This document shows positions 56,705 to 64,000 of a stretch of DNA of 64,000 bases, piece after piece. The stretch comes from Myxococcota bacterium. GTDB taxonomy: Bacteria; Myxococcota_A; UBA9160; SZUA-336. Position 1 is the stretch's first letter. The number at the start of each line of letters is the position of its first letter. Position numbers and translations under genes: made by a program. The DNA is taken from assembly GCA_046754285.1 (NCBI GenBank), contig JBHHVJ010000010.1:15317-79316 (forward strand). The letters run 5' to 3'. The notes beneath the pieces were generated by a model, which was not told where the DNA came from, made no database searches, and saw only the letters and a program-made list of their open reading frames with translations.

Positions 56705-57916
56705 ATGCAGGTCAAGACCTTCGAAGCCGTGGACATGAAGCAGGCGCTCCAGCTCGTCAAACAGGAGCTGGGCCCCCGCGCGGTGATCGTATCCAGCCGG
56801 ACCGTGCGGCGCGACGGCGGAATGTTCGGCCTGCTCGGGCGCAAGGTTCTCGAGGTCACCGCGGCCGTGGAGGACGATCGCAAGGTGGAGCCCGCCACCG
56901 TCAAGGGGCCGCTCGCGCCCGATCTACCGGCCACGCCCCGCAAGCGCAGCGGCGGACGCTACCACGACATCTGGGCGGTGCGTCAGGCGGTGGATCCTGT
57001 CCTCGATGAGGTCCGGGCCCTTCGAGACCAGCTCACCTCGGTTGACGATCGGGCCGCAGCGGAGCCGCGCGAGCTGCGCTCGGACCTGGCCCAGATTCGC
57101 ACGCTGCTCTCTTCGCTGGTGGGCTCCGGAGCGCTGGCCCCCGACGCCGAAGGTACGGCGGCGCAGCGGCTGTTCTACTTCCTGCTGAGCCGCGGAATTG
57201 ACGAGCCTCTCGCACGCTCGTTGGTGCAACGCATCATCGCGCGCATCGATCCGGGCGGCCTCGGAAATCTGGAGCGGCTCAAGCTCAATCTCGCCGCTGA
57301 GATGCGCAGCGACCTGGTGCGCTGTGAACGTGGCAGCCCCCCGGGCCGCGTTCAGCTCTTCATCGGCCCGACGGGCGTGGGCAAGACGACGACGATCGCG
57401 AAGCTGGCGGCGCGCGCATCGCGGGACAGCGTCTTGATCATCACGACCGACGTGCACCGCGTGGCGGCGGTCGAGCAGATGATCCGCTTCGGAGAGATGA
57501 TCTCGGTGCCCGTCGAGGTGGCGATCAGTCCTGCGGATCTCGGCCGTGCCATCGCACAGGCAGAGGACCGGGACCGGATCTTCGTGGACACCGCCGGTCG
57601 CAGCCATCTTGACGCCTCCGGCCATCGAAGCCTGCAGGCCTTCGTCGAGGCTGCGGGCGAGGCCGAGCTCATGCTGGTCCTGGCCGCCACCACTCGGGCC
57701 GTGGACTCGCGTGAGATCCTCGACTTCTACTCGGATCTGCCCTTCTCTCGGCTCATTCTGACCAAGCTCGACGAGACGCGGGTCTACGGCGAGCTGTACA
57801 ACTGCATGGTACGGAGTGGGCGGCCGATCGCTTGCGTCACGCACGGGCAGGCCGTACCGGACCACCTCGAGTCGCTGGACATCGCCGGTGTGCTCCGGAA
57901 GGTGCTGCACGGATAG
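56705..57916 (+). CDS. flhF: SRP-type GTPase FlhF
   Basis: MQVKTFEA..M..AL..VK.ELG..AVI, GPTGVGKTTT.AKLAA, DTAGRS, TKLDET, GQ.VPD. Confidence 0.93.
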   Translation: MQVKTFEAVDMKQALQLVKQELGPRAVIVSSRTVRRDGGMFGLLGRKVLEVTAAVEDDRKVEPATVKGPLAPDLPATPRKRSGGRYHDIWAVRQAVDPVLDEVRALRDQLTSVDDRAAAEPRELRSDLAQIRTLLSSLVGSGALAPDAEGTAAQRLFYFLLSRGIDEPLARSLVQRIIARIDPGGLGNLERLKLNLAAEMRSDLVRCERGSPPGRVQLFIGPTGVGKTTTIAKLAARASRDSVLIITTDVHRVAAVEQMIRFGEMISVPVEVAISPADLGRAIAQAEDRDRIFVDTAGRSHLDASGHRSLQAFVEAAGEAELMLVLAATTRAVDSREILDFYSDLPFSRLILTKLDETRVYGELYNCMVRSGRPIACVTHGQAVPDHLESLDIAGVLRKVLHG

Positions 57917-57924
57917 GGGGCCGC

Positions 57925-58770
57925 ATGGGCCAGGATGCCGAAAGCTTTGTCGCGAAGGCCAAGGAGCTGCCCGTCATGCCGCCCGTGGCTGCCGAGGTCA
58001 TGAAGAAGGCCGAGGATCCCGAAACGGATCTCAAGTCGATCTCGACGCTGATATCCCGGGATGCGGCCCTCGCCGTTCGCGTACTCAAGATCGCGAACTC
58101 CTCTTTCTATTCCATGCCGCGCCGGATCGACTCGATCCAGCAAGCCATCGTGCTGCTGGGCTACTCGACGCTCCGCTCGGTGGTGGTGGCCGCGGCGATC
58201 AAGGACGTCTTCAGCCGCTTCGGCCTCGCCGAGCGACTGCTCTGGGAGCATGGGGTCGCGGGGGGCGTGGGCGCTGCCCTGCTGGCTCAGCAGGTCGGAG
58301 GCATCGCCCGGGAAGAGGCCTTCGTGGGAGGTCTGGTTCACGACATCGGAAAGCTCGTCATCTACTCTCAGGCCCAGGCTGACTATCAGAAGGTGCTGAC
58401 TGCGGTCTACAGCGAGGAGAAGGACTCCGTGAGCGCGGAGACCGAGGTTTTCGGCTTCGACCACACCCAGGTCGGCCGTCTGGTGCTCCACAAGTGGCGT
58501 TTGCCCGAGAGCCTGGCCGCCGCCGTGGGGGCCCACCACGATCTGGAGCGGGCGGGCAGCGTCGACGGTGCCCGTCCGCTGGCGGCCGTGCTCATGGTCG
58601 CCGATCGACTTTGCCTGCGGGAGGGCATCGGCCGCCGCAAGTCGGCGCCGGAGCTTGATCCATTCGCCTGTCCCGGTGGGGAGCTCCTCGGACTGACCGG
58701 CTCCGACATCGATGAGCTCGCTGGCCGTTTCGTCGAGACCTACGAGGAGGAGAGGAAGCTCTTCGGATGA
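57925..58770 (+). CDS. Stand-alone HDOD domain protein
   Basis: LP.MP, D.AL...VLK.ANS.FY, AIV.LG, LWEH, GLVHDIGKL, FGFDH..VG.....W.LP..L..AV..HH. Confidence 0.9.
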   Translation: MGQDAESFVAKAKELPVMPPVAAEVMKKAEDPETDLKSISTLISRDAALAVRVLKIANSSFYSMPRRIDSIQQAIVLLGYSTLRSVVVAAAIKDVFSRFGLAERLLWEHGVAGGVGAALLAQQVGGIAREEAFVGGLVHDIGKLVIYSQAQADYQKVLTAVYSEEKDSVSAETEVFGFDHTQVGRLVLHKWRLPESLAAAVGAHHDLERAGSVDGARPLAAVLMVADRLCLREGIGRRKSAPELDPFACPGGELLGLTGSDIDELAGRFVETYEEERKLFG

Positions 58771-62330: not shown

Positions 62331-63430
62331 TGCGTAGATCTCGCGCCTTCGCACTCGCTCTCGTCGCGCTGCTGCTCTCCAGCGGGGCGCAGGCGGCGCG
62401 CATCAAGGATCTCGCGAGGTTTGCGGGCGTGCGACCGAACCCTCTGATCGGATACGGAATCGTCGTAGGCTTGCAGGGTACCGGCGACAGCTCGGCGAGC
62501 CTCTTCGCCAATCGCTCTCTGGCGGGCCTTCTCTCCAAGCTTGGCATCGTGGTGGATCCGAACCTGGTCAAGGTCACGAACGTGGCCGCCGTGATGGTGA
62601 CCGCCGAGCTCCCACCCTTCGCGCGGATTGGCGAGACGCTCGATGTCACGATCTCCTCGATCGGAGATTCCTCGAATCTCCAGGGGGGAACCCTTCTCGC
62701 CACCCCCCTGCTCGGTGTGAACGGTGAGGTCTACGCGCTCGCCCAGGGAGGCGTCTCCATCGGCGGCTTCTCGGCGAGCTCCGGAGCGGGTGATGCGGTC
62801 CAGCAGAATCACCCCACCGTGGGACGCATTCCGGGCGGGGCGCTCGTGGAGCGCGAGCTGCCCTTCAGGCTGCGCCCGCGGGACTCGATGCGTTTGCTCC
62901 TGCGGGAGAAGGACTTCACCACCGCCGCGAGGATGGCGCGGGAGCTGAATGCGGCTCTGGGATCCGGCATCGCCCACGCCTCGGACGCCGGCACGATTGA
63001 GCTCCGCGTTCCCGAGCCCCAGCAGCTCGATCTGGTCACCTTCCTGGCACGGGTCGAGGATGTGCAGGTGCAGCCCGATCGTTCCGCAACCGTCGTCTTG
63101 AACGAGCGCACCGGTACGGTGGTGATGGGCGCGGACGTGCGCATCTCTGCGGTAGCCATCGCCCACGGAAACCTCACGGTGCGCATCGACAACAAGACCC
63201 AGGTCTCCCAACCCGCACCCTTCGCACAGGTGGGATCGACGGTCGCCTTCGACAATGCGGAGATCGTCGTGCAGGAGAAAGGCACGCCGCTGGCGGTGGT
63301 GCAGGGGATCACGATCTCCGAGCTGGTGCGGGCGCTCAACGCGATCGGGGCCAGCCCCCGTGACCTGATCGCGATCCTGCAGGCGATCAAGGCCGCGGGT
63401 GCGCTTCAAGCAGAGCTGAAGATCCTATGA
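62330..63430 (+). CDS. flgI: P-ring protein FlgI
   Basis: RIKDL....GVR.N.L.GYG.VVGL.GTGD, NVAAVMVTA.LP, NERTGT.VMG, LQA.K.AGAL.AEL. Confidence 0.95.
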   Translation: MRRSRAFALALVALLLSSGAQAARIKDLARFAGVRPNPLIGYGIVVGLQGTGDSSASLFANRSLAGLLSKLGIVVDPNLVKVTNVAAVMVTAELPPFARIGETLDVTISSIGDSSNLQGGTLLATPLLGVNGEVYALAQGGVSIGGFSASSGAGDAVQQNHPTVGRIPGGALVERELPFRLRPRDSMRLLLREKDFTTAARMARELNAALGSGIAHASDAGTIELRVPEPQQLDLVTFLARVEDVQVQPDRSATVVLNERTGTVVMGADVRISAVAIAHGNLTVRIDNKTQVSQPAPFAQVGSTVAFDNAEIVVQEKGTPLAVVQGITISELVRALNAIGASPRDLIAILQAIKAAGALQAELKIL

Positions 63431-63765
63431 GTCCCTCAAGCGTTCCAGACGTCCGGCCGATAGGGGATGCGGGAATGGATTCCCGCGTGAGGCCACGCAT
63501 GGAAGCGGATGCGGCCCGGCCGGCGGAGGTCGCCGAGAGCCGGAAGAGCGAGCTCGCCAAAGCCACCCAGGAGTTCGAGGCGTACATCCTGCGCATGCTG
63601 CTGCGTGAGATGCGCAAGAGCGTGCAAAGCGGGGGTCTCTTCCGCGATCGGTCCATGGAAGGCTATCGGGCGCTGCTCGATGACGCGCTGGCGCGGCGGG
63701 CAGCCGAGGGCGGGGGCTTCGGGCTGGCCGCTCAGATGCTGCGTCAGCTGGAGCGCTCCCCATGA
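63427..63765 (+). CDS. flgJ: Short FlgJ (rod-binding domain only)
   Basis: L.KA.QEFEA..L..LL.EMRKS, GG.GLA.QMLRQL; no muramidase domain. Confidence 0.85.
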   Translation: MSPSSVPDVRPIGDAGMDSRVRPRMEADAARPAEVAESRKSELAKATQEFEAYILRMLLREMRKSVQSGGLFRDRSMEGYRALLDDALARRAAEGGGFGLAAQMLRQLERSP

Positions 63766-64000
63766 GCCCCTCGATCCAGCCGCTGATCGCCGTGCTCGAT
63801 CAGGAGACCTCGCTCCTCAAGGAGCTCGTCGAGCTTCTCCAGGGAGATCAGCAGCGCATCATCCGCCAGGACGTCGAAGCGCTGGAGGAGAGCAACCGAC
63901 ACAAGGAAGCCGTCGTCCTGCGCTTCCAAAAGCTCGAACGCTCGCGCCTCAGCCTCACACAGGAGCTCGGGGTCGCGCTGGGTCTCGCGAGCGAGGACAT
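63762..64000 (+). CDS. flgN: Probable FlgN chaperone, runs off the window edge
   Basis: Manual translation from ATG 63762 (ATGA overlap): MSPSIQPLIAVLDQETSLLKELVELLQGDQQRIIRQDVEALEE...LE..R...LG; FlgN-like helical pattern. Confidence 0.7.
   Translation, partial: MSPSIQPLIAVLDQETSLLKELVELLQGDQQRIIRQDVEALEESNRHKEAVVLRFQKLERSRLSLTQELGVALGLASED

Follow-up and report, generated by a model that had tools for sequence, protein, structure and literature searches.

Among polar flagellates, four-tier cascades that pass control from sigma-54 to sigma-28 are known from Vibrio cholerae (FlrA/FlrC), Pseudomonas aeruginosa (FleQ/FleR) and Geobacter (FgrM), and in Campylobacter and Helicobacter the flagellin genes are split between these two sigma factors. 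Here we compare with such systems a flagellar gene cluster carried on a 64,000-nucleotide stretch of DNA (the window) from a Myxococcota bacterium, which corresponds to positions 15317-79316 of contig JBHHVJ010000010.1 in assembly GCA_046754285.1 (UBA9160; SZUA-336). A first-pass annotation made from the window alone had remarked that fliA, flgM and flhG are all missing from their usual positions, and had ranked the locus as the best candidate here for an undescribed regulatory system. We judge it likely that the window instead encodes the sigma-54-dependent early and middle stages of an ordinary two-sigma cascade, with the genes for the late regulators located in other parts of the genome. 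What remains of the earlier suggestion is a lineage variant, in that flhG appears to have been lost from the family.

The source genome (3.47 Mb, approximately 68% G+C) is distributed over 124 contigs and is 89.6% complete. Its contigs are cited below as C3, C8 and so on, with the window lying on C10. Members of the family are known from metagenomes only, and the nearest named records are metagenome-assembled genomes (MAGs), which bear the labels Deltaproteobacteria, Myxococcales and, for one of them, Gemmatimonadota. For comparison across the class we used 41 genomes, of which 25 belong to the same family and the rest include two sister families, termed f5 and f6. Genes outside the window were called by GC content at the third codon position, and therefore their start codons are approximate; the start of flgM was set by hand. 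Sites of the form GGCAC-N5-TTGC were treated as sigma-54-type promoters and sites resembling TAAA-N15/16-GCCGATAA as sigma-28-type promoters, and scans for the latter used the pattern TAAA-N14-17-CCGA.

The locus shares several features with the four-tier cascades. Sigma-54 promoters are predicted for the basal-body, rod and hook operons, fliA lies behind a sigma-54 promoter and adjoins an activator gene, flagellin and flgM have sigma-28-type promoters, and FlhF is present. Unlike in those cascades, fliA lies outside an flhA-flhF-flhG-fliA operon and flgM is beside neither flgN nor flgA. Rather, fliA and flgM lie next to each other in a unit of their own (activator-fliA-flgM-response regulator), which also occurs in relatives that lack flagella, and there is no FlhG/FleN.

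This last difference is of interest because a 2025 review (PMC12826062) describes the FlhF and FlhG genes as "consistently encoded together". As in the switch treated there, by which FlhF and FlhG set the place and number of flagella, flhF directly follows flhA and its GTPase motifs are intact, and the sister families have flhG immediately downstream. The present family, however, has flhF without flhG, and on the evidence of gene content it is, as a whole, an exception to joint encoding.

Other known arrangements are matched in part. The class resembles Campylobacter and Helicobacter in having flagellin genes with predicted promoters of either the -24/-12 type (f5 and f6) or the sigma-28 type (the present family), but the split runs between families and not between the flagellin genes of one cell. 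The first-pass annotation had recommended a search for FliW-CsrA and for FlbT and FlaF. The former pair is present on C9, where csrA (79 bits) and fliW (112 bits) follow flgL; this adjacency recalls the FliW-CsrA homeostasis of Bacillus subtilis and Campylobacter, although here csrA precedes fliW, unlike in those organisms. Unlike in Caulobacter-type control, neither FlbT (PF07378) nor FlaF (PF07309) gave a match in the genome at E <= 0.01, in a search that recovered the Caulobacter control.

Late flagellar regulators outside the window

Matches to Pfam models define a plus-strand run of fliL-fliM-fliN-fliO-fliP-(fliQ)-fliR-flhB, followed by flhA, flhF, a gene for an HDOD-domain protein, a small open reading frame (ORF) and flgF-flgG-flgA-flgH-flgI-flgJ-flgN. 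The features that bear on the argument are as follows.

35410-35424, plus strand: sigma-54-type promoter at the head of the flagellar cluster, exact match to GGCAC-N5-TTGC (sequence match)
37511-39094, plus strand: sigma-54 activator with AAA+ sigma-54 interaction domain, lid and Fis-type helix-turn-helix (Sigma54_activat, 220 bits)
39163-39177, plus strand: sigma-54-type promoter GGCAT-N5-TTGC before flgB (sequence match)
49777-50940, plus strand: fliM, 387 residues
54611-56689, plus strand: flhA (FHIPEP, 854 bits)
56705-57916, plus strand: flhF (SRP54 GTPase domain, 121 bits)
57925-58770, plus strand: HDOD-domain protein (HDOD, 190 bits)
58767-59045, plus strand: 92-codon ORF with an ATG that overlaps the stop codon of the HDOD gene, predicted to be translationally coupled
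59069-59084, plus strand: predicted sigma-54 promoter TGGCAC-N5-TTGCA before flgF, with a similar site in one relative's locus
59096-59797, plus strand: flgF (Pfam)
59831-60604, plus strand: flgG (Pfam)
60604-61593, plus strand: flgA (Pfam)
61590-62330, plus strand: flgH (Pfam)
62330-63430, plus strand: flgI (Pfam)
63427-63765, plus strand: flgJ, short, with the rod-binding domain only (Pfam)
63762-64000 within the window, continuing to 64265, plus strand: flgN (Pfam), then flgK

The gene order on which the first-pass annotation drew is confirmed by these matches: flhF is followed by the HDOD gene and the small ORF with no flhG-fliA, and flgJ runs into flgN through an ATGA overlap (63762-63765) with no flgM between them. 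The order flhA-flhF-HDOD-small ORF-flgF...flgJ-flgN-flgK is common to three named MAGs and nine further genomes of the family, and thus the layout is no assembly accident. However, flhF-flhG-fliA and flgJ-flgM-flgN, which had been taken as strongly conserved blocks, are not the norm in this class. In the six f5 and f6 genomes read for synteny, all with flhG, no fliA follows flhG and no flgM lies between flgJ and flgN. The flgK gene itself seems to be split by a contig break: C10 ends with its N-terminal part (from 64268 in window numbering), and C9 (496-2677) opens with its C-terminal part, followed by flgL-csrA-fliW, a late hook-associated block that would extend the operon of the window.

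The paired loss of FliA and FlgM that had been proposed for this organism is refuted by the presence of both genes, side by side, on C3. A profile search of the genome identifies fliA at C3:3588-4346 (281.5 bits, against a TIGR02479 cut-off of 189.6). Directly downstream, flgM (C3:3225-3442, 72 residues) gives the only match to the FlgM model above the cut-off of 25 bits in the genome (PF04316, 29.9 bits, or 30.3 bits for the 72-residue protein with its hand-set ATG). On the minus strand of C3, a sigma-54 activator with receiver, AAA+ and helix-turn-helix domains (4642-6021) is followed by fliA, flgM and a response regulator of 579 residues (1320-3059). The activator in the window, by comparison, has an N-terminal region with no receiver match in Pfam. 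The gene for sigma-54, rpoN, is on C18. The general lesson is that absence from a usual operon position is not absence from the genome, and the logic leading from sigma-54 to sigma-28 appears intact here.

Predicted promoters are distributed as such a cascade would lead one to expect. The window contains three sigma-54-type sites, exact or near-exact, located at the cluster head, before flgB and before flgF. As the first-pass annotation had stated, it has no sigma-28-type promoter: a scan of its intergenic regions found none, and the pattern has a single match in the window (0.72 expected by chance), which falls within flhA. Outside the window, fliA is preceded at a distance of approximately 80 bases by CGGCAC-CCGAT-TTGCA, a putative sigma-54 site that is kept in all 11 family loci. 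The gap between fliA and flgM holds GCTAAAG-N16-CCGATAC, then a Shine-Dalgarno sequence (AGGAGGG) and the ATG, and this sigma-28-type promoter of flgM is kept in 10 of the 11 loci with spacers that vary.

Two flagellin genes were found. The first, fliC1 (C8:34774-35622), precedes fliD and a FliT-like gene and carries GCTAAAGATC-N-TCCGAATA 133 bases upstream; 13 of its 14 orthologues keep TAAAG(A/T)-N-CCGAA (TAAAGATC-N-CCGAA) at 118-137 bases upstream with a variable spacer. The second, fliC2 (C41:1277-2080), has TCAAC-N15-GCCGATAC upstream, and three fliC2 orthologues keep TCAAC-N-CCGATAA. Inspection of the regions upstream of fliC1 and fliC2 revealed no -24/-12 site. Thus, the check on the flagellin promoter that had been suggested in support of sigma-54 control yielded conserved sigma-28-type sites instead.

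In the cascade that we consider probable, sigma-54 and its activators would switch on fliA as well as the genes for basal body, rod and hook, and FlgM would restrain sigma-28 for as long as the export apparatus is not yet competent. Thereafter sigma-28 would transcribe flagellin and flgM, FliW-CsrA would tune the translation of flagellin, and FlhF would function without its MinD-type partner FlhG.

Loss of flhG beside a retained flhF

The absence of flhG noted in the first-pass annotation has proved to be a true loss. FlhF retains its GTPase motifs G1-G5 (GPTGVGKTT, DTAGR and TKLD among them, as judged by alignment), and the HDOD start codon follows 8 bases after the end of flhF, which leaves no room for a remnant of flhG. 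The same direct adjoining of flhF and the HDOD gene is observed in 12 related family loci (those of the three named MAGs and nine further genomes). In contrast, the six f5 and f6 genomes have the order flhA-flhF-flhG-(HDOD in three)-flgF...flgN-flgK, and the HDOD gene of the present family occupies the site where the sister families have flhG and then HDOD. The N-terminal (D/H)QAxxLR activator motif precedes Walker A in three of the six f5 and f6 FlhG sequences that were read, in the forms VDQAASLRQ, HQAFGLK and HQATGLRQ.

When an FlhG protein of f5 and f6 was used as a query against the 41 genomes, the matches were bimodal. Orthologues with E <= 1e-51 were confined to seven f5 and f6 genomes, and the best match in each of the 25 genomes of the present family was a housekeeping ATPase (E 1e-9 to 1e-21) aligned over its N-terminal half only. 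No FlhG orthologue was recovered from the 13 FlhF-bearing family genomes searched, which include genomes that are 97-100% complete. In the genome of the window, the f5 and f6 FlhG proteins match only the N-terminal half of an ATPase encoded on C17 (E 1e-7 to 1e-12). Four proteins of this proteome have a deviant Walker A sequence (KGGxGK[ST]), none with the DQAxxLR motif.

Given the retention of flhF-flhG in f5 and f6, we find it likely that flhG was deleted cleanly in this family from an ancestral flhF-flhG-HDOD block. The first-pass annotation had proposed that relatives be profiled for co-loss, and in this comparison the fliA/flgM unit is kept class-wide, and flhG alone is lost in the family. 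Because a FliA-family gene is situated in an activator-sigma-response regulator unit across the whole class, the relocation of fliA and flgM is, to judge from gene order, old and class-wide, and the deletion of flhG alone is specific to the family.

Weighing the cascade and its alternatives

Several observations count against the reading of an ordinary cascade with flhG lost. At 89.6% completeness, this genome taken singly would be weak evidence that flhG is absent, and the argument for its loss is accordingly built on the syntenic site and the relatives. The flgM match falls below the NCBIfam equivalog cut-off (TIGR03824, 26.2 against 40.75 bits). Every promoter described here is predicted, being a sequence match, and TAAA-N14-17-CCGA is not enriched genome-wide (32 sites, 14 of them non-coding against 10.5 +/- 3.1 in shuffled sequence), so that the case for sigma-28 promoters depends on positional conservation and not on counts. 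A second FliA/WhiG paralogue (C62:7580-8425, 265.5 bits) also exceeds the TIGR02479 cut-off, which gives two candidate readers of the flagellin promoters.

Moreover, the activator-fliA-flgM-response regulator unit is kept in relatives without FlhF, FlgI and flagellin, among them several sister families and two genomes of the present family that are 88% and 93% complete; both of these family genomes retain the sigma-28-type flgM promoter. The unit is consequently not a dedicated flagellar regulator, and flagellar export cannot be the only route by which FlgM is released in this class. The persistence of the FliA-FlgM pair where there is no flagellum raises the question of what frees sigma-28 from FlgM in such organisms.

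Two further observations concern these sigma factors and their sites. The C62 paralogue has non-flagellar neighbours (ferrochelatase, a VTT-domain protein and an aminotransferase), and about ten family genomes have similar second FliA/WhiG copies, whose distribution does not clearly follow flagellation. Assignment of one paralogue to the flagellum by co-occurrence was rejected, given that neither tracks flagellation cleanly. Sites of the form TAAAG-N16-CCGAT also closely precede pilB, a PilZ-domain gene and an Hpt gene (C3:31726-31753, C8:59026-59053 and C87:3321-3348). We do not claim these as a sigma-28 regulon, as chance matches are possible with a pattern that is unenriched genome-wide.

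A more elaborate proposal is that the loss of FlhG was enabled by the flhF-coupled HDOD protein, the small coupled ORF and an MshEN-like tail on FliM, which would jointly govern the number of flagella or the assembly of the C-ring by a new mechanism, perhaps dependent on a nucleotide signal, and that the class-wide sigma-28/FlgM unit is a flagellum-independent general regulator recruited to flagellin in this family only. Homologues of the HDOD protein in Gammaproteobacteria and Desulfovibrionaceae are not adjacent to flagellar genes, which makes the link between HDOD and flagellar genes specific to this class. The 92-residue ORF is conserved in the family only, where six loci retain it with 33-47% identity. 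It has the motifs PFPxLPG, EH(K/R)IDxHV and LPTRQ around an acidic, proline-rich middle, and its 3' end reaches into the DNA that precedes the predicted sigma-54 promoter of flgF. It belongs to no family in Pfam or NCBIfam, and a homologue search returned only the ORF itself.

The 387-residue FliM is kept at full length, including its C-terminal MshEN-like tail, in all 11 family orthologues. FliM of f5 and f6 lacks the tail; it aligns only to about residue 324, and its size of approximately 320-345 residues is taken from gene spacing only, since it is too diverged for direct search. The tail occurs in this family only, the one that has also lost flhG; we regard this single co-occurrence as a lead and not as evidence. 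Literature searches gave no matches for HDOD with FlhF and nothing relevant for Myxococcota with FliA. As a whole, we consider this proposal unlikely.

We hold it quite unlikely, too, that the job of FlhG is performed from another locus by the MinD-type ATPase on C17 (C17:13393-14277). Among solved structures its best matches are FleN (5j1j, E 2.3e-26) and FlhG (4rz2), ahead of MinD; canonical MinD was not found in this genome, and, according to a review (PMC12826062), MinD and FlhG can replace one another. However, this ATPase is present in 39 of the 41 relatives, including some without FlhF, FlgI or flagellin, and these three proteins occur in only about half of the 41. It coexists with true FlhG in f5 and f6 and aligns to FlhG over the N-terminal half only. 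The protein starts at Walker A with no N-terminal (D/H)QAxxLR helix, the sequence upstream is unconserved among relatives, and its neighbourhood is of a housekeeping kind, adjoining a gene for a DnaJ plus HTH_25 protein. These two genes form a pair (C17:13393-14906) that may represent a cell-division or positioning module.

That flhG is present but resides in the approximately 10% of the genome left unassembled, as the incomplete assembly in 124 contigs would permit, is hardly credible given that its syntenic slot is filled without a gap and that 12 other FlhF-bearing family genomes, one of them 97% complete in three contigs and one 100% complete, also have no flhG.

Equally improbable is the model put forward in the first-pass annotation, in which FliA and FlgM were lost together and sigma-54 alone serves the whole flagellar regulon, including flagellin; the window by itself, with sigma-54 promoters and none of the sigma-28 type, agrees with this model, but fliA and flgM on C3 and the conserved sigma-28-type sites of fliC1 and fliC2 refute it for this genome. 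Neighbouring families of the class may use a scheme of this kind. In f5 and f6, TGGCAC-N5-TTGC stands 120-210 bases upstream of nine of 11 flagellin genes, which have no sigma-28-type site, and these families also possess a FliA-family gene. Therefore, flagellin driven by sigma-54 may occur in the relatives that keep FlhG, and not in the present genome. The promoter class of flagellin appears to have been switched between the sigma-54 and sigma-28 types within one class of bacteria.

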